In this document: positions 5,448-58,605 of the stretch, piece after piece
Position numbering within the stretch: the first letter of the stretch is position 1
How the letters are laid out: every line of letters begins with the position of its first letter
Virus record (IMG/VR): IMGVR_UViG_3300044656_000027
Coordinates: 47,290 to 111,289 of that record
Reading direction: 5' to 3' (one strand)
From: a virus
Taxonomy: Duplodnaviria > Caudoviricetes
DNA length: 64,000 nt
Made by a program: the position numbers and the translations under genes
Notes under the pieces: model-generated
The model's database searches: none
What the model saw: the letters and a program-made list of their open reading frames with translations, nothing else
What the model was told of the DNA's origin: nothing

Positions 5448-5723
5448 TTAGTAATTAGCAGAAACGTCAGTTTCAGTCTCAGTTATAAATTCTACTTGGA
5501 ATAAGCTTAGATGCGCACCAGTTCCATAAAGGCTTACCCAGTTAAAACTAGTTAAGTCAGCCTTTATAGCAGAGATCATTCTATTGAGTTGCGTAGATGT
5601 AGCAGAATATTGATTGATGTATATACCAACATTTTCTACTATACTGCCAGAACCGTCTTGTACCTGATATCCAATTAGATATACTGGATAATCAAATGTC
5701 TGACCATTTCTAAATAGAGACAT
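5448..5723 (-). CDS. Hypothetical protein (AT-rich)
   Basis: ATG just after the stop of the fibre gene; start trimmed from ORF track. Confidence 0.5.
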   Translation of the reverse strand: MSLFRNGQTFDYPVYLIGYQVQDGSGSIVENVGIYINQYSATSTQLNRMISAIKADLTSFNWVSLYGTGAHLSLFQVEFITETETDVSANY

Positions 5724-5724
5724 A

Positions 5725-8007
5725 TTAAGCCATTCTTCTAATGTCCCCACCCAACAAGCTTACAGTCTGAGCAGAACTCAGGTTGATCTGTACAGCTAGA
5801 GCAGATGTGGACGTGGTTACGATGGTGACTGGTGCGCTTGATGTGATCAAGAATGGGGTAAGAGCACCTGTAGTTGATGAAGTTCCGATCTGGAATTCCA
5901 GAACACCTACAGCAGAAGTAGTGCTTCGGATGTTTACTACTCCTCTAAACGCAAATGGATACGTCAGAGAAGCAGTTAGAGAAGGAGCAGTACCTATAGT
6001 TGCCAACGCTGTACCTGCCCAGTACAATCCAAAGCCCATTGTAGTGGCCGTGGAGTTCGTAGTGATTGTTCCATATCCATTAATCTCGTATACAGCACCA
6101 GCAATAGCATCGTTAGCAGGAACATTGAAGGTGTATAACGCCTGCAAACCTGTAGTAGTTACGGAGGCCGTAGCCGTTACCTGGTTTGCTAGACCCGCCT
6201 CAGTAAGAACAAGACCATTTGAATTACGTGTCTTTAAGTTTCCACCTTGGCTATACAGCAAACCTCCACCAGTAGGATTGGTAGTTGGAACAGTCGTAGC
6301 GTTAGCTAGCTTAAGCTCACCAACACCATTATCTCCCAGATCCGTAGCCGTACCTACAAGAAGGTTGGGCTGAGCATAGAACACAGTTGCCGCTGCACGG
6401 CCCGTAAAGGCATCTCTGGCGGCCGATCCTGACCCGTAAGCCTGAGAACCATCTCCGAGCAGTCTGTATCGGTCAAACGTGTCCGCACCGTTTACGTTGC
6501 TGGAGATAATAGTGTTTCCTACAACTGTTGGCTGCGAGGCAATCAGACCGTTGGTAATGATGGCGTTACCTGAGGCAGGCAGGAATCTAGTGGTAGTAGC
6601 AAAGGTGTACTGACCGCTGGTTGCCTCTAGCACTCCCAAGGGGGAATTAGTAAACCAGTTGGTAGAAGAAGCACCAGTTCCACCAAACGCACAGTTGAAT
6701 ACACGAACAGGAGCAGAAGCCGGGAAGTTGATAGTCTGCTGAACTCCAGCTACACCAGTGGAAACAATAGGAGAATCGAAACGACATCCACTGATGTACC
6801 CATTGGAAGAACCAGACCAGTTGATGTCATAGTTCGTACCCGTTGCACCAGCACCAGAAGTGGAGAAGAACACGTCAGTGAAGTGAACTACAGCACCAGT
6901 ACCCGTAATGGCAGCGCCATGTGTCTGGTTGTTGATGAAGCGCAAGGTATTGAAGCGAAGCTGTGTAGCTCCACCTGTTACATTCAAACCAATAAGACCC
7001 TGCTGAATAACTCCACCATTGAGCTGAACGTTTTGCGGAGAACCATTGGGTCCGTCCTCAATCAATACACAGTTACCCGTGCTTGGTCCGAGACCGTCGA
7101 AGTTCTTGATGAACTGCGCTGCACAGTTTCCCTTAATGTGGAGTGACGCACCAGTTCCCAAAGAAGTCCAGACCAGGTTGTTGCTAGTCAGAACATCCCA
7201 AGAGTCTTCGATGTGAATACCGTCAAGGTTGGCAGAAGCTCCCGTGGTGACACCACCAGAGATGATCTCGTTGTTCAGAATGAAGGAGTTGACAGCGAAA
7301 CCTGATGCAGTGTTTCCGATGAATCTAATTCCCCCAGCAGAAGAGCGGATGATGTTGTGGGAGATCATCGTTCCGTCAGGGTTGTTGCTTGTTCCAGTTC
7401 CACCAATGATGTTGACTGCCCAACCGTTAATGAACCAGAACACACAACGAGAAACCTTACCTCTACGAACCGAGTTGACTTGGATAGCATCAGCCACAGG
7501 GTTGCTGGTGGTCGTAGAGTTGTTTCCCTGGATAGTCAAGTCAGTAACTTCACAGGTATTGGCTGTGATGTTGAAGACGGTAGAACCCGCGAAGGATGTA
7601 CCAATAGTAATCTTGGCGGCTTCGGCCCCAGCACCCATAATCTTGGTGCCCACATTGGAGACCGTTACGGCTGAGCTGTTGAACAGGTAGTTACCTGGTG
7701 GAACGTATACAGTTCCTCCCGCAGTGGCAGCATTACACGCAGCCTGGAAGGCAGCAGTGTCATCAGCGACACCATTACCTAAAGCGCCATAGTCCTTGAC
7801 GTTGTAGTTGTTTACACCAGAGACGGCACCTGAGGAGATACCTAGATTCTGTCTGGCGAGAGGAACGTTAGTCAGGTCAGATAGATTGTTGGCAGCCTGT
7901 AGAGAGGACGCAATGGCACCAGTAGTATTCGCGTCCAATTGCGCCAAGATGGTATTAAGAGGTGCGTCCCAGTTAAGGGTTCCTCTTGCGATAGGAGTAA
8001 TAGCCAT
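5725..8007 (-). CDS. Fibre/spike protein with pectate-lyase-like right-handed beta-helix
   Basis: NVKDYGALGNGVADDTAAFQAA...GGTVYVPPGNY; AANNLSDL repeat. Confidence 0.85.
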   Translation of the reverse strand: MAITPIARGTLNWDAPLNTILAQLDANTTGAIASSLQAANNLSDLTNVPLARQNLGISSGAVSGVNNYNVKDYGALGNGVADDTAAFQAACNAATAGGTVYVPPGNYLFNSSAVTVSNVGTKIMGAGAEAAKITIGTSFAGSTVFNITANTCEVTDLTIQGNNSTTTSNPVADAIQVNSVRRGKVSRCVFWFINGWAVNIIGGTGTSNNPDGTMISHNIIRSSAGGIRFIGNTASGFAVNSFILNNEIISGGVTTGASANLDGIHIEDSWDVLTSNNLVWTSLGTGASLHIKGNCAAQFIKNFDGLGPSTGNCVLIEDGPNGSPQNVQLNGGVIQQGLIGLNVTGGATQLRFNTLRFINNQTHGAAITGTGAVVHFTDVFFSTSGAGATGTNYDINWSGSSNGYISGCRFDSPIVSTGVAGVQQTINFPASAPVRVFNCAFGGTGASSTNWFTNSPLGVLEATSGQYTFATTTRFLPASGNAIITNGLIASQPTVVGNTIISSNVNGADTFDRYRLLGDGSQAYGSGSAARDAFTGRAAATVFYAQPNLLVGTATDLGDNGVGELKLANATTVPTTNPTGGGLLYSQGGNLKTRNSNGLVLTEAGLANQVTATASVTTTGLQALYTFNVPANDAIAGAVYEINGYGTITTNSTATTMGFGLYWAGTALATIGTAPSLTASLTYPFAFRGVVNIRSTTSAVGVLEFQIGTSSTTGALTPFLITSSAPVTIVTTSTSALAVQINLSSAQTVSLLGGDIRRMA

Positions 8008-25880: not shown

Positions 25881-25937
25881 GTTTAGATTCTAGTGTAAAA
25901 GAAAACCCCTGTCAAGAGACAGAGGCTTTCAGTGGAG

Positions 25938-26019
25938 TGGGTAGAGAGGGACTTGAACCCCCAGATCCGAAGAACGGGTTTTACAGACCCGCGCGCTACC
26001 AATTACGCTTTACCTACCC
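25938..26019 (-). tRNA. tRNA-Tyr(GTA)
   Basis: Cloverleaf by eye; cgggt-CTGTAAA-acccg; variable arm. Confidence 0.9.
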
Positions 26020-26020
26020 A

Positions 26021-26095
26021 TGGGGTGACCAACGGGGATCGAACCCGCGATACTTGAGTCACAGTCAAGCGTGTTACCGCTACACCATGGCCACC
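26021..26095 (-). tRNA. tRNA-His(GTG) with encoded G-1 and CCA
   Basis: cttga-CTGTGAC-tcaag. Confidence 0.92.
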
Positions 26096-26104
26096 ATGTG
26101 AAAG

Positions 26105-26175
26105 AGGGAAGCTAGGGACTCGAACCCTAAATGGCGGGGACACAATCCGCTATGTTACCGTTACATTAGCGACCC
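26105..26175 (-). tRNA. Atypical tRNA-like gene, GTG anticodon
   Basis: Good T and D arms; two acceptor-stem mismatches; loop TTGTGTC. Confidence 0.55.
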
Positions 26176-26181
26176 ATAGAC

Positions 26182-26211
26182 ACTATATCGGATTGGAACA
26201 GTAAGTGTCAA
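26182..26211 (-). promoter_or_regulatory. Internal tRNA-array promoter
   Basis: TTGACA-N18-TATAGT. Confidence 0.6.
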
Positions 26212-26212
26212 G

Positions 26213-26284
26213 TACGAACACCAAGAATTGAACTTGAAATTAGACTTTATCAGAGTCTCGTGATAACCGTTTCACCATGCTCGC
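26213..26284 (-). tRNA. tRNA-Ile(GAT)
   Basis: agact-CTGATAA-agtct. Confidence 0.88.
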
Positions 26285-26289
26285 ATTAT

Positions 26290-26598
26290 TTAAATATCCT
26301 CTAGCATGCGCTTAATGAAGCTCTTTGGCTTAGCTCCAACTGCATACTTAATGATACTGCCTTCGCGGAACAAAAGCAAGGTTGGTATAGATGAGATGTC
26401 GTACTTCTTAGTGAGGTTAGGATTCTCATCTGCGTTTACCTTGATGACCTTGAGCCAGTCGTTCTCTTCTGAGATAGACTCTAGCACAGGTGCCATCATC
26501 TTGCAAGGACCACACCACTCAGCCCAGAAGTCAACTAATACGTACTTGTTATCAGCAATTACTGAATCGAATGTTATTTCTGATACTGCCTGCATCAT
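26290..26598 (-). CDS. trxA: Thioredoxin
   Basis: LVDFWAEWCGPCK...SSIPTL. Confidence 0.95.
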   Translation of the reverse strand: MMQAVSEITFDSVIADNKYVLVDFWAEWCGPCKMMAPVLESISEENDWLKVIKVNADENPNLTKKYDISSIPTLLLFREGSIIKYAVGAKPKSFIKRMLEDI

Positions 26599-26610
26599 CT
26601 CTCCTTTACG

Positions 26611-26683
26611 TAGGGCATAGAGGAATTGAACCTCTTATCGTTGGGATATAAGCCCACTGCATCGACCGTTATGCTAATGCCCC
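26611..26683 (-). tRNA. tRNA-Ile(TAT)
   Basis: tggg-CTTATAT-ccca; canonical D and T arms. Confidence 0.8.
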
Positions 26684-26795
26684 AAAGCCCTGTCGCACAT
26701 TCTCCGACTCTCTATGTAACCTCATTCGGACTACTGTGAGACTTCTCTACTAACCCTCGTTACACAGGGTGTTTGATGGCTCGGACTAGCCAAAG

Positions 26796-26879
26796 CGGAG
26801 GATGAGGGATTCGAACCCCCACGGCTTTTACACCGTATTGTTTTCAAGACAACTCCACGCCACCGATGTTAGATCCTCC
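26796..26879 (-). tRNA. tRNA-Ser(TGA)
   Basis: ttgt-CTTGAAA-acaa; long variable arm; G discriminator. Confidence 0.85.
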
Positions 26880-26925
26880 ATGTGATAAGCCTTTTGGTTA
26901 GTAGGGCGCTTATCTAATCCCTAAG

Positions 26926-27013
26926 CGGAGATAGAGGGATTCGAACCCTCGGGGCGATTTGAATACCCGCTGCCTTTCCAAGACAGTGCACTAGACCTCT
27001 ATGCGATATCTCC
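26926..27013 (-). tRNA. tRNA-Ser(GGA)
   Basis: ctgtc-TTGGAAA-ggcag; long variable arm. Confidence 0.9.
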
Positions 27014-27022
27014 ATTATTTAA

Positions 27023-27127
27023 TTAGCGTGGATCAGGATTCTTTGTTCCACACTTTGGGCAATACAGATTTCTCTTATCAGAAGGCATATAGCACTTTGG
27101 ACAATAGAAGATACTTCCACCAGACAT
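27023..27127 (-). CDS. 34-aa Zn-ribbon microprotein
   Basis: MSGGSIFYCPKCYMPSDKRNLYCPKCGTKNPDPR; TAATG-coupled; absent from ORF track. Confidence 0.75.
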   Translation of the reverse strand: MSGGSIFYCPKCYMPSDKRNLYCPKCGTKNPDPR

Positions 27128-27210
27128 TATCGTGCCACCTTGCAGTTATAGCAGTGACCGTACTTGTCCATGTTGATGTGACCACAATACTTACACTTCC
27201 AAAAGCTCAC
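27127..27210 (-). CDS. 27-aa RanBP2-type Zn-finger microprotein
   Basis: MSFWKCKYCGHINMDKYGHCYNCKVAR; GTGA-coupled. Confidence 0.75.
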   Translation of the reverse strand: MSFWKCKYCGHINMDKYGHCYNCKVAR

Positions 27211-27299
27211 TTTGGCTTACCCTTCATCCATCGACAGTGCCAGCACTTTGCTTTTGCTTCATTGTTGTACGAGCCGCAGTTATTGCATTTCCAACCCAT
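27207..27299 (-). CDS. 30-aa RanBP2-type Zn-finger microprotein
   Basis: GGAGG RBS; MGWKCNNCGSYNNEAKAKCWHCRWMKGKPK. Confidence 0.8.
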   Translation of the reverse strand: MGWKCNNCGSYNNEAKAKCWHCRWMKGKPK

Positions 27300-27312
27300 A
27301 ATATCCTCCAAG

Positions 27313-27392
27313 CGGAAGGAGGAGGATTCGAACCCCCAGCTATTCACTGAACGGTTTAGCAAACCGTCTGCCAGACCCCTGACTCACCTTCC
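27313..27392 (-). tRNA. tRNA-Ser(GCT)
   Basis: acggt-TTGCTAA-accgt; variable arm. Confidence 0.85.
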
Positions 27393-27396
27393 AAAG

Positions 27397-27473
27397 AGCG
27401 CAGCAGGAGAATCGAACTCCAAACCAATCGCTTTGCAGGCGATCCCCAGACCATCCGAGTTAGGACACTGCGC
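27397..27473 (-). tRNA. tRNA-Cys(GCA), enlarged D region
   Basis: atcgc-CTGCAAA-gcgat; U discriminator. Confidence 0.8.
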
Positions 27474-27478
27474 ATAAG

Positions 27479-27558
27479 TGGAGCTGCGGGGATTCGAACC
27501 CCGGTGCTGATAACTTCCGACATGCGGTTTTAATCACCAGACGAAACCAACCAGCCCC
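27479..27558 (-). ncRNA. Minimal tmRNA-like RNA (tRNA-like domain only)
   Basis: GGGGCTG/CAGCTCC-A acceptor with G3.U70; GGTTTCG loop without D stem; P2-like helix; T arm; no tag ORF. Confidence 0.75.
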
Positions 27559-27655
27559 ATTGTGTCTGGCCTCATACGGGCTATTACCAGACTTGAAGTG
27601 CCCAGAGCCCGCACTTAGGGCTACTGTCCCGTAAAGGAATCTCGTCAGATTCCAG

Positions 27656-27726
27656 TACCCAGTGAGGGAATCGAACCCCCGCATGTGGTGTGTAAAACCA
27701 CTGGTCTCCCATTAACCTAACCGGGC
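27656..27726 (-). tRNA. tRNA-Val(TAC)
   Basis: gtggt-TTTACAC-accac. Confidence 0.88.
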
Positions 27727-27758
27727 AGGTAGAAGAACCGAAGTTCTTCTAGTATAGC

Positions 27759-27965
27759 TTAACTGCGATAGGCGATAAAGTCAACCGGCACGCTTTCCTC
27801 AACTCCATCGTGCCATCTGACATCTACGCAAGTGGTTCCCATCCAGTCGTACTCAGGGCAAAGAGTAACGCCTGAGTGATTACGACGAGAACCATTCCTA
27901 CCAACAACATTGATCCCTCGGAAGTTGGAAGGTGCTTCCTTCTTCTTACGACCAAACAGACCCAC
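27759..27965 (-). CDS. Hypothetical protein
   Basis: AAGGGG RBS. Confidence 0.55.
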   Translation of the reverse strand: MGLFGRKKKEAPSNFRGINVVGRNGSRRNHSGVTLCPEYDWMGTTCVDVRWHDGVEESVPVDFIAYRS

Positions 27966-27997
27966 TGTGTTCCCCTTCGTTAGTTGGTGTGTCTATC

Positions 27998-28276
27998 TTA
28001 GACCAGGTAGGACCAAGTGTCAACACTACCGTCAGTGCGCTTGAGGCTAATGGATCGATTGACCTCACCCTCCTCAAACGTCCAAGCCATCAGACGCAGG
28101 TGGTACTCAGTGTCAAGGTGCTGGGGAAGACCCATCTCCTCAAGCTCACACAGAGCCTCCATCGTCTTAGCCACGTTGTAAGCGGCAACGGCAAAGCTCT
28201 CAACAGGAACCGTAGAGCTCTTCTTAAAGCCGTCCTTGGACTCGACATCAATAGTGAGTGTAGCCATTTTGTGCAT
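27998..28276 (-). CDS. Hypothetical protein
   Basis: ORF between tRNAs; phage-like codon use. Confidence 0.55.
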   Translation of the reverse strand: MHKMATLTIDVESKDGFKKSSTVPVESFAVAAYNVAKTMEALCELEEMGLPQHLDTEYHLRLMAWTFEEGEVNRSISLKRTDGSVDTWSYLV

Positions 28277-28298
28277 CCCTTCGATTGATACTATGACG

Positions 28299-28371
28299 TA
28301 CCCTAGACAGGATTCGAACCTGCATTGAACAGCTTAGAAGGCTGGTGAGTTATCCGTTACTCTACTAGGGC
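28299..28371 (-). tRNA. tRNA-Arg(TCT)
   Basis: cagc-CTTCTAA-gctg. Confidence 0.9.
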
Positions 28372-28398
28372 AAGAGGGACCGAAGTCCCGGATACTGC

Positions 28399-28953
28399 TT
28401 AGTCCCACCACATAGCCTTAGCATATAGTGGATTCTCTTCTATGTCAACGTCCCACCAGTTATCAACCTCAGCCCAACGCCAGATCGTTCCCCAGTCGTC
28501 GTATCCATTAGGTACTTCGATAGCAGAATTTGGATCAGTGTCAGCATGGTGTCCCATGTAGTTAATAGCCTGCTTGAGTTGCTGCTTGACGTTGTGTCTG
28601 CGAGCCTGACTTACAGCCTTCTTAGCGCCGTGTCGTGGCCAACCGTAGCCTATATCAGTTGCGTAGTATTTGCAACCATCACGCCAACGATTGTGCGTAT
28701 GTGTCATTGGCTCATCAATATTACAAGGAACTTCCTCAGTCCAACGATCCCAGACGTGAACGGATTCTTGACGCTCTGGAATCTTGTAGTAACGCATTTC
28801 ATCCCAATCCCAAACATACTTGGAAGGGATGGTAGTTACATCCGTACGAACATACTCTCTTCGATGACGCAGATGATTATGGACAGCCTCACGGCGTTCC
28901 TTAGAGTCATTAGAGCGAACCCAGTAAGGACGATCCTTGCGAGTGCGGGACAT
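28399..28953 (-). CDS. Hypothetical basic/Trp-rich protein
   Basis: GGGAG RBS; MSRTRKDRPYWVR N-terminus. Confidence 0.6.
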   Translation of the reverse strand: MSRTRKDRPYWVRSNDSKERREAVHNHLRHRREYVRTDVTTIPSKYVWDWDEMRYYKIPERQESVHVWDRWTEEVPCNIDEPMTHTHNRWRDGCKYYATDIGYGWPRHGAKKAVSQARRHNVKQQLKQAINYMGHHADTDPNSAIEVPNGYDDWGTIWRWAEVDNWWDVDIEENPLYAKAMWWD

Positions 28954-29064
28954 ATTTACTCCCTTGTTAGTGCTAAAGCAAATGCCAGTATTTAGAGGAA
29001 CTGGCTGGCCTCCCGTTCATTGAGACTTTCTAGGGTGTGTTTCAGAACGGCTTAGATATCCCTG

Positions 29065-29140
29065 CACGGATGACAGGAGTTGAACCTGCATGTGTCCTTT
29101 AACCTTTCTACGCGTTCGTAGCGCGAGGGTATACATCCGC
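29065..29140 (-). ncRNA. Non-canonical tRNA-like RNA with ACG anticodon and no D arm in the usual place
   Basis: GCGGATG/CATCCGT acceptor; CGCG-CTACGAA-CGCG; 21-nt post-anticodon segment; T arm. Confidence 0.65.
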
Positions 29141-29551
29141 ATTAAGTTGCCACCAATTAAACTGTCTGGCAGTTCTGTATCTGTGACATTTGACACAACG
29201 AATATCGCACTTAGCGATCTCAGTTTGTAAAACTTCTAAACTAAGCTTTCGCTTAATACCATCCGCTATATTAAAACTTTTGGTTTCTGGATCTCGATGA
29301 TCAAAGTCCAGAAGGACTATATCAGACTCGCCACAATCTATACAGGGATTCTGATCATAGTAATTTACTAAGTAAGTTCTAACCTTTACTAGGTACTTCT
29401 CATCATTACGCCGTGCCTTAGCCAAGTAGCTTTGCTTATTAGCTTGATAATGCTCACGAGTATACTTACGATGACAAGGCTTACACATTGCACTCTTAGT
29501 TGCGAACTCTTCTTTGGCCAACTCTTGGTTGCACCTACTACATGTTTTCAT
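29108..29551 (-). CDS. HNH endonuclease
   Basis: KTCSRC...CKPC; PCIDCGE...LDFDHRDP...CDIRCVKCHR. Confidence 0.85.
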   Translation of the reverse strand: MKTCSRCNQELAKEEFATKSAMCKPCHRKYTREHYQANKQSYLAKARRNDEKYLVKVRTYLVNYYDQNPCIDCGESDIVLLDFDHRDPETKSFNIADGIKRKLSLEVLQTEIAKCDIRCVKCHRYRTARQFNWWQLNADVYPRATNA

Positions 29552-29571
29552 GCTACTAATTATAGCATAGG

Positions 29572-29609
29572 TTCGTAGGCAAGTGCTCTATCCGTTGAGC
29601 TATAGCACC
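29572..29609 (-). pseudogene. 5' half of tRNA-Arg(ACG), truncated at the anticodon loop
   Basis: GGTGCTA-TA-GCTC-AACGGATA-GAGC-A-CTTGC-CTACGAA followed directly by the HNH promoter; no matching 3' half seen. Confidence 0.75.
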
Positions 29610-29617
29610 ATACTTTG

Positions 29618-30121
29618 TTACTTCTTTAAACTTAGCAGATAATCTCTTATAGCACCAGGACTTGTCAAGTATGCTGGCTTGTTAGACAGCTTGGAACCCG
29701 CCAAATCGTAATCCTCAGCACAGAGTTGAGAGCAGATCAAGTGCTTGCTGTTAAGAACTCTAGCAGAGATCCAAGGAAGAGGCAAGTGCAGTCTCTTCGT
29801 GAAAATCGCAAAGTAATCCAGGAAACTGTATGGTGTGCCAATCTGATTGGTTGCTAGAGTAACGATAGTCACTCTTTGCTGAGCTGTCAAATCAATCAGA
29901 CCAGAGGACCACAGGATCTCTCGTCCATCGTACTTCGACAAGTTAGTTCTGATAGCACCACCAGGTTGAGCTTCTACGATCTCACCATTACCAATGTAAA
30001 TGAAGGCATGCTCATAGTTGGAGAAGCCATCTCCGTTAAGCCACTGGCCTAAGCGAATCAGCTTGCCCACAGTACCGTTGATACTTACTAAGCCTACATC
30101 ACCTGGTAATAGTTCCGCCAC
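29618..30121 (-). CDS. Permuted papain-like NlpC/P60 (YiiX/YaeF-like) protein
   Basis: PGD...YEHAFIYIG...VEA...GTPY...ICSQL (His before Cys); start trimmed. Confidence 0.8.
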   Translation of the reverse strand: MAELLPGDVGLVSINGTVGKLIRLGQWLNGDGFSNYEHAFIYIGNGEIVEAQPGGAIRTNLSKYDGREILWSSGLIDLTAQQRVTIVTLATNQIGTPYSFLDYFAIFTKRLHLPLPWISARVLNSKHLICSQLCAEDYDLAGSKLSNKPAYLTSPGAIRDYLLSLKK

Positions 30122-30251
30122 TACACTTCTCCTTGTGCTTAAAGAATGCTTTCTCTGCTTCACCCTCAGAGTCAAATGGACCCTCAGAATGCCTACCAGT
30201 AGCGCACTCGTGAGTAAACTTCCACTTACCTGGTCTATGTTGAATGACCAT
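30099..30251 (-). CDS. Small hypothetical protein
   Basis: AGGAGG RBS; MVIQHRPGKW... Confidence 0.5.
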   Translation of the reverse strand: MVIQHRPGKWKFTHECATGRHSEGPFDSEGEAEKAFFKHKEKCSGGTITR

Positions 30252-30266
30252 CTTTCCTCCTTTACG

Positions 30267-30339
30267 TACCCCCAGTGGGACTCGAACCCACACCACGCGG
30301 ATTAAAAGTCCGCTGCATTAACCGTTGTGCTATAGGGGC
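30267..30339 (-). tRNA. tRNA-Lys(TTT)
   Basis: gcgga-CTTTTAA-tccgc. Confidence 0.92.
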
Positions 30340-30363
30340 ATAGGGCCGAAGCCCTCTTTCGAA

Positions 30364-30798
30364 TTACTTACCAGTGCCAGCCTGAGCAGTAATGGTAGGA
30401 ATACCACCCTGACCAGAAGGAACGTAAACAACAGTGTTGTTCTTGCCAGACTCAGCGATACGCTCAAGAGCCTGAGTCATCTCGTACTGAACGTAGATGG
30501 GAGTCAGAGTCTTAGCGATCTCATCCTGAGCCTCACGGACACCAATGGCGTCCTGGAGACGAATCTCAGCCTGCTGCTTAGCAATCTGAACTCGCTGCGC
30601 CTGATTCTGGATCTCAATGTTAGAGACCTCAACCTGGTTATTCGCAGCAATAATATTCGCCTGAGCCTTGTTCTTAGCATCCTGGATATTCTGGTATCGA
30701 CCAAAAGCCTGGAAACCCGCAATGGCACCCATGAAGATACCGATTACAAGAGCCAGACCAAGAATCGCAGCAACACCCTTGCCCAGAATCTCAGACAT
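30364..30798 (-). CDS. Membrane-anchored coiled-coil protein (band-7 C-terminus-like)
   Basis: N-terminal TM; KTLTPIYVQY...TVVYVP. Confidence 0.6.
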   Translation of the reverse strand: MSEILGKGVAAILGLALVIGIFMGAIAGFQAFGRYQNIQDAKNKAQANIIAANNQVEVSNIEIQNQAQRVQIAKQQAEIRLQDAIGVREAQDEIAKTLTPIYVQYEMTQALERIAESGKNNTVVYVPSGQGGIPTITAQAGTGK

Positions 30799-30847
30799 TT
30801 AGTTATTCTCCTTCTTAATACTCCGAGTACCGATCTAATGATCGGAG

Positions 30848-30921
30848 AGCCCACTATGGGATTCGAACCCATGACCTCTTCATTACCAATGAAGTGCTCT
30901 GCCAGGCTGAGCTAAGAGGGC
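30848..30921 (-). tRNA. tRNA-Thr(GGT)
   Basis: cttca-TTGGTAA-tgaag. Confidence 0.92.
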
Positions 30922-31028
30922 AAAACAAGATTGAGATCGGGACGCCGAACTTGTCACTTCCCAGCGATACTGCCTGCATACAGTTCAATCTCTGGAACTC
31001 ATCTAAGCGCTTAGAGTGTTGTTCGTTG

Positions 31029-31100
31029 TACTCCGCCAGGGACTTGAACCCTGATCCATGGATTAAGAGTCCATTGCATCACCATTAATGCTTGCGAAGC
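31029..31100 (-). tRNA. tRNA-Lys(CTT)
   Basis: atgga-CTCTTAA-tccat. Confidence 0.9.
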
Positions 31101-31129
31101 ATAAGGCTCCTATTGGAGCCCGTTTTACG

Positions 31130-31435
31130 TTACTTACCAAAGAGCCAACGTGCAAGACCCTTTGTCTCTCGATAAGGCTCGTTCTCCTGGTATCCTCCAC
31201 CGAAAGTGCTCTCATACGCAAGACGCTCAGCAGAAACCTGTGCGTGACCCTCAGGAGTTAAAGGGGTACCACGAGAGAACTCCTTGCGCATACCGTCCTT
31301 GGAGGTATACTCGTTCACCTTGAAGTTAGGTGCTGGAGTATCGGAACCATCGTCCTTAAGATACTTATCGTAATAAGCATCGTAATGAACTCCGAGCTTC
31401 TTCTGCTCCTTAGGCGTAAGCCACTTCTCAGGCAT
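31130..31435 (-). CDS. Hypothetical protein
   Basis: GGGAGG RBS. Confidence 0.55.
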   Translation of the reverse strand: MPEKWLTPKEQKKLGVHYDAYYDKYLKDDGSDTPAPNFKVNEYTSKDGMRKEFSRGTPLTPEGHAQVSAERLAYESTFGGGYQENEPYRETKGLARWLFGK

Positions 31436-31469
31436 AAGGTTTTGCCTCCCTTATATTGGTTATAAAACG

Positions 31470-31541
31470 TGGAGCCACGGGGAATCGAACCCCGAACTTC
31501 GGATTGCAAAACCGATGTGTTTCCGTTAGCACCATGGCCCC
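31470..31541 (-). tRNA. tRNA-Ala(TGC)
   Basis: G3.U70; loop TTTGCAA. Confidence 0.9.
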
Positions 31542-31603
31542 AGTGTTCTCATCTAGTGTACCACACTCTAGATGAAATAAAAAGCCCAACTTAATGGGCT
31601 AAG

Positions 31604-31675
31604 CTCTCACAGCTGGATTCGAACCAACAACCTTGGAGTTAACAGCTCCCTGCTCTGCCATTGAGCTATGCGAGA
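31604..31675 (-). tRNA. tRNA-Asn(GTT)
   Basis: ggag-CTGTTAA-ctcc. Confidence 0.9.
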
Positions 31676-31746
31676 ATAAGCCTCAACCACTAGGGAAGAG
31701 GTGGTGTATGTTGTTTATCTTAGCAAACTCTCGTTAGAGAGTCAAG

Positions 31747-31817
31747 CAGGCCACCCAGGAGTCGAACCCGGCCGAATTGGGTTGGAACCAATCATGCTTC
31801 CGATACATCAGTGGCCT
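31747..31817 (-). tRNA. tRNA-Trp(CCA)
   Basis: attgg-TTCCAAC-ccaat. Confidence 0.88.
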
Positions 31818-31863
31818 ATATGGTTCCGTTGTTTCCCACGCACAACGGTTTCCTAAAAGCTCG

Positions 31864-31936
31864 TAGCGCCCGTCGGATTCGAACCGACACTGATTAGTTC
31901 CTAAGACTAATGCCTCTGCCATTGGGCTAGAGCGCC
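31864..31936 (-). tRNA. tRNA-Leu(TAG), short variable loop
   Basis: ttagt-CTTAGGA-actaa. Confidence 0.88.
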
Positions 31937-31976
31937 ATACGCACTCAGTGGCCAAAGCGGGTGAGTGCTTGTGTTA

Positions 31977-32420
31977 CTAGCTTATCAGATTATGAACGTA
32001 ATGGGAAGCTTCATAGTCTGACGCTGATGCATTGTGGATGCCTCCGTGTCCTCTGTGGTGCTTAGCACACAGGAACATGAAGTTCTCTTCTGATTCTACC
32101 CAAGCGCCCACTTCATTAGGATCAGAGATCCCAGGGAAGTCCTGCTCTAGGTACTTCAAGTCTACACCCTGCTGCATGCTGAATTCAACATGGCTGTGGT
32201 GTAGCTCCAGACCTCCAGCACACTCGGAAGTATCTCCGCCACGACGTAATGCGAATTCGCATACAGCGTCCTTGACGTGAGTCTTACGATAGTGCTCAAA
32301 GTCACGATAATGTGGATCATCCTTTCTAGCTGGATGAGCCGGAAATGCTACTGTGTAATGCTTAGTTTCAGCTTGTGTATGCGCTTCTACTACCTTACCC
32401 ATACTGGCCCTATCTGTCAA
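31977..32420 (-). CDS. His/Cys-rich protein, HNH-like
   Basis: LELHHSHVE...LCAKHHRGHGGIH. Confidence 0.5.
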   Translation of the reverse strand: MTDRASMGKVVEAHTQAETKHYTVAFPAHPARKDDPHYRDFEHYRKTHVKDAVCEFALRRGGDTSECAGGLELHHSHVEFSMQQGVDLKYLEQDFPGISDPNEVGAWVESEENFMFLCAKHHRGHGGIHNASASDYEASHYVHNLIS

Positions 32421-32998
32421 TAGCCCTTAGGTGGGCGTGTTGGATCAAATTGCTGAACCTTGGCAGCTAGGTCATGTCCATCTCTGGATACTCCATAGAA
32501 CTGTACCACATAGTTCATAGCCGCACAAGTGTTGGCTACGGCATCGTAAATGTCATATGACGTTCCAAGTTGGTGATACTTTGCAAAGGTTGGTGGAATA
32601 CATTGTAGAACACCACGAGAACAATTTGCAGGATGACCATCAGCAACGATAGGTCCAGTAGCGTTTAGATCATAAGTGTTTACTGCGTTAAAGTCATAAC
32701 TGCTTTCACGGTTGGCCGCAGTAACAAGTCCAGTCTTCCAATAACTCTGTGCTGTCGGATCAGTAATAGACATGATCTCGAATACCTTTGGCAGCACAGT
32801 AGAGGTAAAGGATACAGAGTTGTCTACTAGGCCGTAACTAACAGCACCTACACTAATAGGAGAAGGTGTAAATCCAGTGTCTACTGATATTTCGATACTG
32901 TTCTTAGTCAGCTTAGTCTTAGTTGTTATACCGTTAACAGTAATAATTGCAGTGGCCCCAAGAGGCAATGTGCCGGATGTAAATAAGTGCTCTATCAT
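32417..32998 (-). CDS. Lytic transglycosylase (SLT) domain protein
   Basis: RESS...AVNTYD.NA...SRGVLQCIPPTF...AAMNYV..YG; start trimmed. Confidence 0.85.
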   Translation of the reverse strand: MIEHLFTSGTLPLGATAIITVNGITTKTKLTKNSIEISVDTGFTPSPISVGAVSYGLVDNSVSFTSTVLPKVFEIMSITDPTAQSYWKTGLVTAANRESSYDFNAVNTYDLNATGPIVADGHPANCSRGVLQCIPPTFAKYHQLGTSYDIYDAVANTCAAMNYVVQFYGVSRDGHDLAAKVQQFDPTRPPKGY

Positions 32999-32999
32999 A

Positions 33000-33344
33000 T
33001 TATTCCAATTCAGTAATCGGTATCCAGCCCTTGCCCTCACGGCCCTCTACTAGAAGGTTACGAGGCTCCATGTCTCTGGCTACTCTGTCTTCAACCTTCT
33101 CAAGCCCATGAAGGGTCCTGTGTGTCCATATGCGGAACTTTGAGGACTCTGCCATACGTCTGAATGCCAAACGCTTGTTGATCAGCTGAGAGCGCTCCTC
33201 ACGGCTTTCACCTACAGCACCGGAAGGCTTATGAATTACTCTTACGCCCGTTTCGCGCTTATTCTGATTCTGACCACCCTTTCCTCCTGAACGGAAGGTT
33301 TGGACCTCACAATCATGAATAGTCACGCTAAATGCTTTTTCCAT
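33000..33344 (-). CDS. Peptide chain release factor (RF-1/GGQ) domain protein, ArfB-like
   Basis: [26 protein letters not shown]...ERSQLINK. Confidence 0.9.
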
Positions 33345-33345
33345 G

Positions 33346-33419
33346 TAGTCCTACTCGGATTCGAACCGAGAACCTTCACATTTTGAGTGTGACGCCTCTG
33401 CCAATTGGGCTACAGGACC
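33346..33419 (-). tRNA. tRNA-Leu(CAA), short variable loop
   Basis: tcaca-CTCAAAA-tgtga. Confidence 0.88.
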
Positions 33420-33472
33420 ATTTCTGCCCCCGATGGGCCTTGTGCACTGGAATTTCCAGGATCGGGGTAAAG

Positions 33473-33546
33473 TAGTCCTTGTCGGACTCGAACCGACACC
33501 TGAACAGGGTTTAAGCCTGTTGCCTCTTCCATTGGGCTAAAGGACC
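33473..33546 (-). tRNA. tRNA-Leu(TAA), same decoding as bldA
   Basis: acagg-CTTAAAC-cctgt. Confidence 0.88.
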
Positions 33547-33554
33547 ATAATGTG

Positions 33555-33625
33555 AGCCCTGCGAAGGAATTGAACCCTCATTTGCGCATTACGAAAGCGC
33601 TGTTCTGCCGTTTAACTAGCAGGGC
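33555..33625 (-). tRNA. tRNA-Thr(CGT)
   Basis: gcgc-t-TTCGTAA-t-gcgc. Confidence 0.85.
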
Positions 33626-33629
33626 AATG

Positions 33630-33769
33630 TGGATAGTTGGATTCGATGATTACCAACAAGGCATTTCCTACGTCATACAGTAAATACCTACCATCCCTTT
33701 GGGTGCTACCCAAGACCGCTAAGTCAGGATGTGCGTTCGACCCATAGGCGAGTCTTTTCCGCCATATCC
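33630..33769 (-). ncRNA. Expanded tRNA-like multi-helix RNA
   Basis: GGATA/TATCC-A closing stem; D-like and T-like arms; internal helices. Confidence 0.45.
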
Positions 33770-33795
33770 GGTCAGCATGATCAGTGCCGACTTTG

Positions 33796-33868
33796 AGCCC
33801 CCAGTCGGATTCGAACCGACGACCTACGCTTTACAAGAGCGTTGCTCTGGCCTCTGAGCTATAAGGGC
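33796..33868 (-). tRNA. tRNA-Thr(TGT)
   Basis: acgct-CTTGTAA-agcgt. Confidence 0.92.
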
Positions 33869-33910
33869 ATAGGGAGTCTCCGGAAGGAGGAAACAGAGAC
33901 TCCCAGTATA

Positions 33911-34204
33911 TTAGGCAGTTCCCGTAGCGGTAACTACCCAGTCTGTGTTTGCGTTCAGAGTAAAGTCAATTGGCTTGCTGAACGCGTTACCAGTTAGGTA
34001 AACAGTCCAAAGACCGTCAGTAGCACCAGCACCAGGAGCGTTAACTGCCTGCTGAATTGACGCAACTGTTGGATATCCCAGTCCAGAACCAGACGCAGGA
34101 GCGGTTTGCACGTAGCAGTGACCATCTGCGGCTGCTGCAAGAACAACCTGAGTACCCACAGTCAAAGCATTAACTCTGATTGGAGCATTGTAAGTAATTG
34201 CCAT
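33911..34204 (-). CDS. Hypothetical protein (virion-like composition)
   Basis: Ala/Thr/Gly-rich; start trimmed to ATG. Confidence 0.5.
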   Translation of the reverse strand: MAITYNAPIRVNALTVGTQVVLAAAADGHCYVQTAPASGSGLGYPTVASIQQAVNAPGAGATDGLWTVYLTGNAFSKPIDFTLNANTDWVVTATGTA

Positions 34205-34273
34205 AAGTGGCACCTTTCATGAAAGGGATTGAGCGCTATAGCATTCTCAATAATATCATGAAAGATTATTGTG

Positions 34274-34347
34274 CACCGAAGACGAGATTTGAACCCGCAA
34301 ATACCCAGCTTGAAAGGCTGGTGACTCTACCATTCGTCCACTCCGGC
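34274..34347 (-). tRNA. tRNA-Glu(TTC)
   Basis: ccagc-CTTTCAA-gctgg. Confidence 0.9.
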
Positions 34348-34496
34348 AAGCGCAGAGATGACACCAACCCCTGCGGTTATTACATAGTATTTAATAGGCA
34401 GCCTATCTCTTTTCGGCTAGCGGGAGGACAGGTAGCCCTTTAGCTCAGGCTTCCAACTCTTCCTTTATCCCTAGAGACCTATTATGGTGTCTTACG

Positions 34497-34570
34497 TACT
34501 CCGTACGGGATTCGAACCCGTATTCTCCCGGTTGAGAGCCGGGTGAGATGTCCTATTACTCTAACGGAGC
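34497..34570 (-). tRNA. tRNA-Glu(CTC)
   Basis: cccgg-CTCTCAA-ccggg. Confidence 0.9.
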
Positions 34571-34616
34571 ATACATCTCCTTGGTTGGCGAAGGAGATGG
34601 TTCCTCAATGTACGCG

Positions 34617-34689
34617 CGCCCCTGACGGGATTCGAACCCGCCCTTGCACCTTGACAGGGTACCGTGCTACTCCCATACACTACAGGGGC
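34617..34689 (-). tRNA. tRNA-Asp(GTC)
   Basis: gtacc-CTGTCAA-ggtgc. Confidence 0.9.
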
Positions 34690-34695
34690 TTTTAT

Positions 34696-35154
34696 TTACA
34701 CCATCTTAAAAGCTGCCGTACGCATGGCTTCTGCGAACTCCGTGTCAGGAAGTTTCTTGGCGTCTTGTGGTGCTTCTACATTACCAGTGAACACATCGTA
34801 TGTCAACTCACGTGTGTACTTGTTAGCGATCTTCTCCATCTGAACATACATGTCATTCAGCATGTTCATCATGTCGTTCTGCGCTCTCTGTGATAGAGAC
34901 CTTATACCATCCTGGCGTCCTCTGTCAACAGCAGCCTTGGTGTCCGCAGCAAACTCAGGTGTGTGAATTAGCGCGTCATTTTCGTTGTAGAGCTCTCGAA
35001 TCTTCTTCTCAGTCTCAGATAGCTTCTGACGTAGCGTAAGCGCCTCAGACTGCCATCTAGCCATGCCTAAGCGTGCTTCCTCAAGCTCCCACTTGGTGTC
35101 CTTGAGTTCATCTGACACAAGGGACAACGCGTTTCTAATTGCGGACTTCTTCAT
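34696..35154 (-). CDS. Coiled-coil hypothetical protein
   Basis: AGGAG RBS. Confidence 0.6.
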   Translation of the reverse strand: MKKSAIRNALSLVSDELKDTKWELEEARLGMARWQSEALTLRQKLSETEKKIRELYNENDALIHTPEFAADTKAAVDRGRQDGIRSLSQRAQNDMMNMLNDMYVQMEKIANKYTRELTYDVFTGNVEAPQDAKKLPDTEFAEAMRTAAFKMV

Positions 35155-35238
35155 TATATTCTCCTAGTTATTATCACAATGTAGTGACAGTATATCAGAG
35201 AATAGAAAAAGCCCCTGTAATACAACAGGGGCCTTAAG

Positions 35239-35529
35239 TTACTCAGCAGGCCAAGTAATGTTTGGTCGTTGAAACTTAACTCTGCCATTTCTTACAATGG
35301 CACGTTCAATATCTGGGGATTCCTCACCATAGCGAATCATAATCAGATACTTATCTGGATACTGGTACGCGATCTGCTGTAAATCCTCGTCCCAGTTATA
35401 CCACTTAGCGCTATACATGCAACCATCGTCATCCCAAGACGGACCATAATTGCCTGTATTAGCAGCAAGGACATCCTTAATATCAGGAATGTCCGTGTCT
35501 ACAGTTTCAAAATTTGAGTAATATCCCAT
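35239..35529 (-). CDS. Hypothetical protein
   Basis: AGGAGG RBS; MGYYS...KWY...GEE pattern. Confidence 0.65.
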   Translation of the reverse strand: MGYYSNFETVDTDIPDIKDVLAANTGNYGPSWDDDGCMYSAKWYNWDEDLQQIAYQYPDKYLIMIRYGEESPDIERAIVRNGRVKFQRPNITWPAE

Positions 35530-35652
35530 TCTTACCTCCTACGTAAGTGGTCTTCCCGTAGTCAGTGTGCACCTGACTTTTCCCGTACGTTCCTGCTGCT
35601 AGCTAGCGTTCACGTCTGTAGAGTGTTGTATCCCAGTTAAGGGACGGGGGCG

Positions 35653-35723
35653 CTGGGGCGCAGAGATTCGAACTCCGATAGGCTGATCCAAAGTCAGCAG
35701 TCCTGCCATTAGACGAAACCCCA
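35653..35723 (-). tRNA. tRNA-Gln(TTG)
   Basis: gctga-CTTTGGA-tcagc. Confidence 0.88.
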
Positions 35724-35739
35724 TTAAATTTGCTGCAAG

Positions 35740-35810
35740 CTCCCCGACATGGATTCGAACCACGATTTCTTCGTCCAGAGCGAAGCGTGCTGCCCTTACA
35801 CCATCAGGGA
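35740..35810 (-). tRNA. tRNA-Gln(CTG)
   Basis: cttcg-CTCTGGA-cgaag. Confidence 0.9.
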
Positions 35811-35848
35811 ATAAGTGCCCTGCTATTGCTAGCTGTTTATGGGCTAAG

Positions 35849-35921
35849 TACCGTATAGGAGACTCGAACTCCTTCGTTCACTTTGGAAGAGTGACATGCT
35901 GCCATTAAACATCAATACGGC
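35849..35921 (-). tRNA. tRNA-Gly(TCC)
   Basis: tcact-CTTCCAA-agtga. Confidence 0.9.
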
Positions 35922-35998
35922 ATTGCTTGTAGTCAGGCGGTTCTTTCAGGTTCTACAAGCTCCTCTGTCGCTACATATCGCAGCAACCGCCAGGAAAC

Positions 35999-36394
35999 TT
36001 AGTAATCGTCGTGAGATTCGTCTTCATCCCATTCAGGAACACACCAACCGCAATCACACCAGTCTTCGTAGTATTCCTCTTCCTCTTCGTCCTCATAACC
36101 AATCAAAGTTACTACAGGACCCGCAGAGGTTACATCTACGTCAACAATACGGTCAGAACCATCCTGAACCTCAGCAGATACTCCCCAACCCGTTTCAGAA
36201 CCATATTCAGCCTTCATAAGCTCCTCAATGAGGATACGAGTCAGATATGGAGTATCGTACTTGCGATTAAGTGCTCTTCCGACGCTTAGACCTGTCATAA
36301 CCATTGCTGGCAGGTCCGACCCATTCCAGTGAGTGTAAATGTACACACCTGGACGATTTCCTTCATGAATGTATACGTTAGCTCTATCTCCCAT
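35999..36394 (-). CDS. Hypothetical protein with acidic tail, probably leaderless
   Basis: MGDRANV..IYTHWNG; ATG 7 nt after -10. Confidence 0.65.
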   Translation of the reverse strand: MGDRANVYIHEGNRPGVYIYTHWNGSDLPAMVMTGLSVGRALNRKYDTPYLTRILIEELMKAEYGSETGWGVSAEVQDGSDRIVDVDVTSAGPVVTLIGYEDEEEEEYYEDWCDCGWCVPEWDEDESHDDY

Positions 36395-36401
36395 GTGAGA
36401 G

Positions 36402-36430
36402 ACTGTACTACATTCACTTGAAGATGTCAA
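36402..36430 (-). promoter_or_regulatory. Promoter (leaderless)
   Basis: TTGACA-N17-TACAGT, 7 nt to ATG. Confidence 0.65.
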
Positions 36431-36431
36431 G

Positions 36432-36515
36432 TGGTAGCGGAGGCGGGATTTGAACCTCTTTGTGCGATCTCTAGCTTATGAGGCTAGCGAGATGACCTAG
36501 CTTCTCTACTCCGCG
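36432..36515 (-). tRNA. Initiator-like tRNA-Met(CAT) with T-stem insertion
   Basis: C1:A72 mismatch; encoded CCA; ctagc-CTCATAA-gctag. Confidence 0.75.
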
Positions 36516-36517
36516 AG

Positions 36518-36589
36518 TACCGGGAGTGGGAATCGAACCCACGACGACAAGGTTATGAATCTTGCGTTCTACCATTGAACTATCCCGGC
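36518..36589 (-). tRNA. tRNA-Met(CAT) elongator (or Ile2)
   Basis: Loop TTCATAA. Confidence 0.82.
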
Positions 36590-36599
36590 AAAAGATATG

Positions 36600-36672
36600 T
36601 GCCGCCTGTAGGACTCGAACCTACGACCTGTCGGGCTTCAACCGACCGCTCTTCCAACTGAGCTAAAGCGGC
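36600..36672 (-). tRNA. tRNA-Phe(GAA)
   Basis: gtcgg-TTGAAGC-ccgac. Confidence 0.9.
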
Positions 36673-36746
36673 AATACGAGTAATTACTATGTTTAGTACC
36701 CTAGTCCATTATATTTAGCGGTATTTACTAGTCTATTACTCAAACT

Positions 36747-36821
36747 TGGTCGTCTTTGTGGGGCTGGACCCACTCCTCTGCCCTCCCACGGACAGTGTGC
36801 AACCGGTTACACCATTAGACG
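36747..36821 (-). tRNA. Degenerate tRNA-Pro-like gene with 8-nt anticodon loop
   Basis: C1, A73, CCA; ctgtc-CGTGGGAG-ggcag; aberrant T loop. Confidence 0.45.
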
Positions 36822-36826
36822 ATAAG

Positions 36827-36898
36827 TCGGGTACCGGGGAATCGAACCCCGTTTATCCTGATCCCAAATCAGGCGGATTACCATCTTCCTCGTACCCG
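36827..36898 (-). tRNA. tRNA-Pro(TGG)
   Basis: cctga-TTTGGGA-tcagg. Confidence 0.9.
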
Positions 36899-58169: not shown

Positions 58170-58436
58170 TTAATTTCCGTTTAGCAGATTGTCCCAATTA
58201 GTCTCATTGACATTAGCCTGTGCTGCGAATTGTGTTTCCAGGAACAGCATCAAATACTCTCTGGCTTCTCCAGAGATTACGATATCTGTCAGGTGTCCAG
58301 GTTGATCAATAGTAATGCCGATCTTATCCAGATCATAGGCTGAGATAGTCATACCGTCATCAAACTCAGCTACCAGTCCCTCACCATCAAGAACTGCGTC
58401 AACCATCTCATCAAAGTCATTAAACTGCGAAGCCAT
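58170..58436 (-). CDS. Acidic hypothetical protein
   Basis: Coupled ORF. Confidence 0.55.
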   Translation of the reverse strand: MASQFNDFDEMVDAVLDGEGLVAEFDDGMTISAYDLDKIGITIDQPGHLTDIVISGEAREYLMLFLETQFAAQANVNETNWDNLLNGN

Positions 58437-58605
58437 CTACGTACCCTTCTCCGAAGCAAACAATACAATCTGTGTCATATTCTCGATCTAAGCCACTACC
58501 ATAGCAAGCCTGGCATCTGAATCCCTCAGGCTCAGTGTCAAACCATTCAGGTTCGATATCGTCTTGGTAATCCCAATCGACATCTTCCTCATCAAATTCT
58601 AACAA
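58420..58605 (-). CDS. Small acidic Zn-finger protein
   Basis: CQACYGSG...CIVCFGEG (DnaJ-type CxxCxGxG). Confidence 0.6.
   Translation of the reverse strand: MLEFDEEDVDWDYQDDIEPEWFDTEPEGFRCQACYGSGLDREYDTDCIVCFGEGYVDGFAV

Follow-up and report, generated by a model that had tools for sequence, protein, structure and literature searches.

Three putative coupled zinc-ribbon microprotein genes between two tRNA-Ser genes of an uncultured phage

Three overlapping micro-ORFs in a tRNA-gene spacer

The DNA described here belongs to an uncultured phage whose sequences come from soil, rhizosphere and root metagenomes; nine soil and rhizosphere studies contain the locus. Its IMG/VR record (IMGVR_UViG_3300044656_000027) measures 111,289 bp and has direct terminal repeats, and the stretch that was analysed (the window; 64,000 nt, to which positions refer unless another sequence is named) is part of that record. 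By megablast and blastn, its tRNA genes resemble those of Streptomyces phages. ARAGORN predicts a minus-strand array of 32 co-oriented tRNA genes that spans 25937-36898. Within this array, three overlapping open reading frames (ORFs A, B and C; 27023–27299, minus strand) fill the spacer between tRNA-Ser(gct) (27312..27392, minus strand, also matched by the tRNA clan of Rfam) and tRNA-Ser(gga) (26925..27013, minus strand, also found by Rfam), which confirms the placement among tRNA-Ser genes that a first-pass annotation of the sequence had noted.

ORF A (27207..27299, minus strand) begins with ATG 12 nt after the 3′ end of tRNA-Ser(gct) and encodes 30 residues followed by TGA. The 12-nt gap holds a GGAGGA Shine–Dalgarno (SD) site (27304..27309, minus strand), which lies 2 nt after the tRNA 3′ end and 4 nt before the ATG. 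ORF B (27127..27210, minus strand) has a GTG start, 27 residues and a TAA stop, and is preceded at 9 nt by an SD-like GAAGGG (27220..27225, minus strand) that lies within ORF A. ORF C (27023..27127, minus strand) has an ATG start, 34 residues and a TAA stop, with an SD-like AAGGTGG (27135..27141, minus strand) 7 nt upstream and within ORF B; tRNA-Ser(gga) begins 9 nt past its stop. The TGA of A overlaps the start of B by 4 nt (GTGA) and the TAA of B overlaps the ATG of C by 1 nt (TAATG), so the GGAGG ribosome-binding site and the chain of three ORFs joined by these overlaps, as first described, are borne out by the sequence. So are the motifs attributed to the products. ORFs A (W3, C5, C8, N12, C19 and C22) and B (W4, C6, C9, N13, C20 and C23) both fit the RanBP2-type consensus W-x-C-x2-C-x3-N-x6-C-x2-C exactly, and ORF C, which has neither the Trp nor the Asn, is a CPKC-x10-CPKCG zinc ribbon. 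All three have C-x2-C-x10-C-x2-C in common.

The cassette is not the only coding insertion in the array. A thioredoxin gene (26290-26598, minus strand) sits between tRNA-Ile(tat) and tRNA-Ile(gat) with spacers of 11 nt and 5 nt, and its SD site directly follows the 3′ end of a tRNA, the same ‘tRNA-punctuated’ layout as that of the cassette. Coding genes packed into tRNA spacers are therefore normal for this array. Between tRNA-Cys and tRNA-Val, Rfam also reports a tmRNA match of about 83 nt (27476-27558, minus strand) at 58.2 bits, above its gathering score of 47. Elsewhere in the window, a 61-codon ORF (58420-58605, minus strand) combines a CxxCxGxG...CxxCxGxG pattern with an N-terminal half that is acidic, and a similar 65-codon frame is found near position 22726 of a related phage genome, G001.

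The clustering of the shared motif is far above chance. C-x2-C-x10-C-x2-C occurs four times in the six-frame translation of the 111,289-bp genome, against a mean of 0.2 per genome in first-order Markov resamples; three of these occurrences are the cassette ORFs, within 277 nt, and the fourth is an off-frame Cys-rich stretch. A looser pattern, CxxC-x6-20-CxxC, matches 13 of the genome's 1,702 ORFs with 20 codons or more, and the three adjacent cassette ORFs are among the 13. Codon-usage log-likelihoods for these very short ORFs are −1.9 bits (A), +4.0 bits (B) and +3.7 bits (C), compared with +32 bits for the thioredoxin gene.

Further evidence comes from a variant strain whose assemblies stem from two other studies: one (run X10) yielded a contig of 111,309 bp and the other (X11) shorter contigs from a root metagenome. 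Across 27023-27299, the variant differs by nine substitutions and no indels (3.2% divergence), and the changed codons comprise five silent changes and three conservative replacements. ORF A has one silent change; ORF B has two, one of them TGC>TGT in Cys20, together with N22S; and ORF C has two, one of them in Cys12, together with S2A and S5T, both in the tail that precedes the first knuckle. Two of the five silent changes are thus TGC>TGT in Cys codons, and all 12 cysteines, both overlaps and every stop are intact. The cysteine spacing, to which the first-pass annotation had looked for a sign of conservation in relatives, is therefore kept in this strain. When the same kinds of substitution were re-placed at random in the region, at least five silent codons with no change to a stop arose with P = 0.042; given that this figure draws on one variant lineage and eight changed codons, we regard the apparent purifying signal as real but small.

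The same substitutions bear on a 158-codon ORF on the plus strand (27001..27477), which runs antisense over the cassette and two tRNA genes. In its frame they amount to one silent and seven replacing changes, because of which we consider it spurious; an automatic gene caller might report this ORF instead of the micro-ORFs. Putative joints linking 26951 to 27350 were considered as a cassette-free form of the phage and rejected. They are best read as bacterial tRNA-Ser contigs, each half of which matches one of the two phage tRNA-Ser genes. Beside the cassette, the 103-nt spacer at 27560-27664 is replaced by 89 other letters in the X10 contig of the variant strain, and a loose end of an X11 contig at this spacer resembles a tRNA T-arm (GGGATTCGAACCC), which suggests that the tRNA-like element beside tRNA-Val is not the same in the two strains, one having been swapped for another.

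Two accounts that would deny the existence of three separate genes can be weighed against these observations. If the spacer were non-coding, with ORFs arising by chance and with a function as RNA or none, the extreme shortness of the frames and the uninformative codon usage of ORF A would be expected. The concentration of the motif, the SD sites, the coupling overlaps and the retention of all the cysteines despite silent changes in two of their codons speak against such a spacer, as do the confident predicted folds described below and the lack of any Rfam family inside the cassette at E ≤ 1 in a search that detected the flanking tRNAs. We therefore give this account next to no credence. It is also very improbable that the cassette is a single three-finger gene broken by two frameshifts, whether as a pseudogene or through assembly error. 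The three fingers are indeed alike in spacing and fold, and tandem fingers of this kind exist in single larger proteins from metagenomes (a scan for them gave seven matches, all inside larger proteins, and no relative of the cassette). However, none of the ORFs lacks a start codon or an SD-like site of its own, both junctions are canonical 4-nt and 1-nt coupling overlaps, the same frames recur with no indels in the independent assemblies, and the substitutions are biased towards silent sites in three separate frames. The claim that the three ORFs are stand-alone genes is accordingly supported by the motif statistics, the SD sites, the overlaps and the mostly silent changes in the second strain.

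Family, fold and binding residues of the predicted microproteins

The assignment of A and B to the RanBP2-type fingers, which was first made from the consensus with a profile search suggested as a check, holds in part. Neither ORF matches PF00641 (zf-RanBP) in Pfam at E ≤ 10 (its gathering cutoff being 27 bits). The likeness nevertheless stands on the exact consensus, on matches to sequences in the PDB and on the predicted fold of A. Among PDB sequences, A is closest to the RBM10 finger (E = 0.016), with Nup153 and RBM5 next, and B to the Npl4 NZF (E = 0.0026), ahead of MDM2 and ZRANB2. ORF B also matches the phage family PHROG 17317 (31 positions) at E = 1.5e-4. ORF C, which shares the CPxC...CPxCG knuckles of the prokaryotic families Zn_Ribbon_1, Zn_ribbon_3 and DZR (PF13240, PF13248 and PF12773), matches these three in Pfam at E-values of 3e-4 to 8e-4 and 19.6-20.4 bits, below their cutoffs (25-27.3 bits). 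Weak PDB matches (E = 0.1-0.2) raised the idea of a mimic of the ribosomal protein bL32, which we rejected because only one knuckle aligns.

AlphaFold2 (AF2) models of A (pLDDT 91) and C (pLDDT 84.5) have an identical fold of two short hairpins. The A model thereby shows the pair of orthogonal β-hairpins, the zinc knuckles, that characterizes RanBP2/NZF fingers. In Foldseek searches, at least the top 20 matches of the A model are RanBP2/NZF fingers, including TRABID NZF1, Nup153 and RanBP2, with query TM-scores (TMq) of 0.76-0.88 and superposition at 0.3-1.7 Å over 24-29 residues. The C model likewise ranks the fingers of Nup153, RanBP2, TRABID, RBM5 and ZRANB2 at the top (TMq 0.72), and the r.m.s.d. 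of both models to the best fingers is often below 1 Å. Given that ORF C, which has neither the Trp nor the Asn, yields the same matches, the fold search identifies a minimal ribbon with ten residues between the knuckles and not the RanBP2 family as such. We conclude that the three proteins are, as modelled, isostructural zinc ribbons, and that A and B stand at the border of the RanBP2 and DZR families, which belong to one clan.

Larger sequence collections point the same way. A phmmer search of A against 1.84 billion representative proteins returned eight matches at E ≤ 0.001, all in proteins of 194-688 residues, seven of which are cysteine-rich zinc-ribbon or multi-finger proteins. In Pfam, four are assigned to PF00641 and others to DZR, Zn_Ribbon_1 or DUF7577. 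The same representatives include no stand-alone homologue of A at this threshold, which weighs little because gene callers seldom report such short ORFs. A 51-codon form of A, extended upstream, shares no words with any protein in the homologue search, NCBIfam gave nothing useful for the cassette proteins, and the Protein Atlas scores for the cassette query, of up to 0.88, are leads only.

We compared the residues that define each mode of binding by eukaryotic RanBP2 fingers. One subclass (ZRANB2, FUS, EWS and RBM5/10) binds single-stranded RNA. Asp and Asn contact the bases of GGU, and putative RNA-binding members have been picked out by requiring that the residue which follows the conserved Asn, ‘position 17’, be aromatic (PMC6384913). 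At this position A has Asn13 and B has Met14, neither of them aromatic, and the flanking Asp, Arg and Asn contact positions of the RNA-binding fingers also differ in both. The single-stranded RNA binding that the first-pass annotation cited for eukaryotic RanBP2 fingers therefore does not carry over to A or B. NZFs that bind ubiquitin have Thr-Phe directly after the second Cys and a hydrophobic residue about ten positions later, and fingers that bind Ran have a Leu-Val pair in place of the Thr-Phe. In A and B the residues after the second Cys are Gly-Ser and Gly-His, respectively, which correspond to neither pair. With the signature residues replaced, none of the three characterized eukaryotic binding modes can be transferred to A or B.

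Distribution among relatives and across phages

The cassette was not found in cultured phages: megablast and blastn searches of the locus against 50,697 phage records returned only tRNA matches to Streptomyces phages, and tblastn searches of these records with the three ORF products yielded nothing beyond marginal matches (E = 0.05-9), which led to the ORFs of phages CF1 and Kahlid described below. Related metagenomic contigs are more informative. All eight (L083 and L285-L291, of which L288 is the G001 genome) have the same tRNA order, G001 being the closest with 60% identity in thioredoxin, and in all eight the syntenic spacer is without the cassette. The cassette is therefore dispensable, and by this comparison it appears to be an accessory element at the level of the strain or species, outside the core of the tRNA array.

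Three of these relatives, phages of about 111 kb, carry a different RanBP2-like micro-ORF of 29 residues on the plus strand (L288:1688-1777, L289:1178-1267 and the same ORF in L290), with the pattern W-x-C-x2-C-x10-C-x2-C and a basic tail. Within the tRNA array it immediately follows a conserved gene, with tRNA-Ala some 60-70 nt further on; four other relatives do not have it, and the adjoining conserved gene is absent from our phage altogether. The G001 copy is about 55% identical to those of L289 and L290, as counted from the alignment, with the Trp and the four Cys kept, and ORF A is 40% identical to the L289 copy (pairwise E = 0.002). In another relative, L291, a 35-residue micro-ORF with repeated CxxCxG (about 5696-5800, plus strand) lies directly upstream of tRNA-Ser(gct). 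In the two whole genomes examined, our phage and G001, stand-alone zinc-ribbon micro-ORFs occur only inside the tRNA array. The array ORFs of the relatives thus suggest that the tRNA arrays in this group gain and lose small zinc-ribbon genes. Such a pattern hints weakly at a functional link between zinc ribbons and the array, and would fit equally well with an array that is a hot spot for small accessory genes.

Outside this lineage, similar proteins are common. A degenerate DNA pattern for W-x-C-x2-C-G-x2-N-x6-C-x2-C matches at least 120 loci in IMG/VR, with a chance share estimated at a few. Among the matches listed, about 40% of 123 motifs fall in ORFs of at most 60 codons, and many of the motif ORFs have 26-30 codons and start one to three residues before the Trp. 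PF00641 is matched at E ≤ 1 by 17 of 27 motif microproteins (best E = 7.3e-8), a set chosen by the motif itself, and a profile of the motif microproteins matches, in the PDB, an ArnA-type finger (8s05_C; E = 3.9e-7) and RBM10 (E = 4.5e-7). Because the set was selected by the motif, these profile matches show what the class is and do not constitute independent homology. A subfamily resembling A, of 29-33 residues, is kept in three contigs, where it adjoins terminase genes. Among the motif loci, L137 and L168 carry RanBP2/NZF-type ORFs with an acidic tail. The exact motif of ORF C, by comparison, lies mostly within large proteins, many of about 506 residues, and 2 of its 66 occurrences in IMG/VR are in ORFs of at most 60 codons.

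One member of the class is already annotated, as the 31-residue product of Cf1_00275 in Citrobacter phage CF1. In the Mycobacterium phage Kahlid (MN586052.1; L086:1501-1584, plus strand), the space between gp135 and gp134 is taken up by an unannotated ORF of 27 residues, which matches the RanBP2 consensus exactly and begins 1 nt past the gp135 stop. Matches of the same length in tblastn suggest that the ORF is also present in Wilder and LilDestine; the Kahlid copy is the one that was translated.

The cassette thus belongs to a kind already known, the stand-alone zinc-ribbon microproteins of phages that are filed as PHROGs and ‘hypothetical proteins’. PHROG 17317, Cf1_00275, the Kahlid ORF and ORFs on contigs L156, L276 and L277 resemble it in size, in cysteine spacing and in start/stop overlaps with their neighbours. 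Other stand-alone phage ribbons are usually not near tRNAs, whereas the cassette has three of them in coupled tandem, and what is distinctive here is this tricistronic, coupled arrangement wedged between two tRNA genes. Compared with the eukaryotic RanBP2/NZF fingers of PF00641 (RanBP2, Nup153, ZRANB2, RBM5/10, Npl4, TAB2 and TRABID), A and B share the consensus and the one-domain size of about 30 residues, but they are whole proteins and not domains of larger ones, and they have Gly after the second Cys, like bacterial ribbons. Earlier work had already noted RanBP2-like motifs in proteins of prokaryotes (PMC6509490 and PMC12458937). One is the N-terminal finger of archaeal ArnA (PDB 8s05 and 5a8i), a prokaryotic motif that has been assigned to the RanBP2 type (PMC6509490) and that is a fold match to A and C as well as the best profile match of the class; it forms one protein with an FHA domain and cooperates with the vWA protein ArnB, whereas no such partner gene is seen near the cassette. 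Bacillus phage G has about 35 zinc-ribbon copies in a lineage-specific expansion, for which roles as transcription factors or in DNA binding were suggested (Iyer et al. 2021, PMC7824862). By description, that expansion resembles the cassette in consisting of multiple small stand-alone ribbons in a large phage genome, but the cassette has only three copies in one operon inside a tRNA array.

This distribution bears on the proposal that the fingers are directed at RNA, binding tRNAs, their precursors or processing enzymes, and that they protect or regulate the phage tRNAs, for example against anticodon nucleases of the host. The position between tRNA-Ser genes, the restriction of such micro-ORFs to the array in the two whole genomes, the other zinc micro-ORFs at the array loci of L289, L290 and L291 and the precedent of single-stranded RNA binding by some eukaryotic RanBP2 fingers (PMC6384913) all fit with this proposal. 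Nevertheless, the residues expected at the RNA contacts are replaced in A and B, the position in the array varies between relatives, most of which have no cassette, and a tRNA is present at 8 of the 120 motif loci, among the matches listed. Moreover, location is weak evidence, because tRNA arrays in general attract small accessory ORFs. The tRNA-protecting role suggested at the outset finds no support outside the lineage, and we regard a tRNA- or RNA-directed function as quite unlikely. It is doubtful, to a slightly greater degree, that stand-alone RanBP2-like ribbons of 26-35 residues, as a large class of phage microproteins most of which lack annotation, are functionally tied to the tRNA array in this tRNA-rich lineage of phages of about 111 kb. 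If this were so, the ribbons might interact with precursors of tRNAs or with enzymes that process or repair them, or protect the phage tRNAs against nucleases of the host, and tRNA processing itself would release the mini-mRNA of the microproteins.

Proposed expression and action

The nearest upstream promoter candidate in a consensus scan is TTGACA-17-TAAGAT (27995..28023, minus strand) and a second promoter-like site lies at 28448..28420 (minus strand), in a scan for which the count of such sites is not above that in shuffled sequence. No minus-strand terminator-like site was found between these sites and the cassette, so that the three genes would be transcribed together with the co-oriented tRNA array. 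Excision of the flanking tRNA-Ser genes would then leave a tricistronic mRNA of about 300 nt, to judge from the gaps of 12 nt and 9 nt, with a leader of 12 nt that would contain hardly anything but the SD site. Through their overlaps (GTGA and TAATG), B and C would be translationally coupled to A. Each product would carry four Cys in two knuckles, presumably holding one Zn2+, and our best guess is that each acts as a minimal single-zinc module that attaches to a macromolecule of the host or the phage.

On balance, we consider it probable that the cassette comprises three genuine, coupled accessory genes, each encoding a one-domain zinc-ribbon microprotein that serves as a binding module, with a protein a likelier target than RNA. 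An RNA or tRNA target is the less likely because the RNA-binding residues are missing in A and B. The best PDB match of the class profile, a chain of the ArnA finger, is from an entry titled as the ArnAB complex, and by that title it counts towards a protein target. The most likely role would then be that of a modulator of a host or phage protein, possibly in counter-defence, and it is unlikely that the cassette has no function at all.

In a specific form of this protein-binding model, the microproteins, for which the first-pass annotation had raised a possible anti-defence role, would act in anti-defence or host takeover, each blocking a host protein such as a defence sensor, a nuclease, RNA polymerase or a component of the ribosome. 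Small, patchily distributed accessory genes beside other accessory genes are the typical pattern of counter-defence genes, and the cassette, which is small, accessory, patchy among close relatives and next to other accessory genes, follows it. In addition, RanBP2-like zinc modules are found in defence proteins such as YprA helicases (PMC12458937). Against this, the microproteins have no similarity to a known anti-defence protein: searches with NCBIfam and PADLOC gave nothing, the latter result being limited by the fact that PADLOC models describe defence-system proteins and not phage counter-defence. We therefore judge the anti-defence form unlikely, while retaining the broader model of protein-binding modules.

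Our result is one of careful annotation rather than of a new mechanism. Genes as short as these escape the cutoffs of most gene callers, and a copy of the consensus stands unannotated even in the well-curated mycobacteriophage genome of Kahlid. The tRNA-array spacers of large phages can contain tightly packed, coupled microprotein genes, and the RanBP2-like consensus, usually regarded as eukaryotic, is common among stand-alone phage proteins. If a target is found, few folded phage effectors would be smaller than the cassette products, which could be useful as minimal binding scaffolds.
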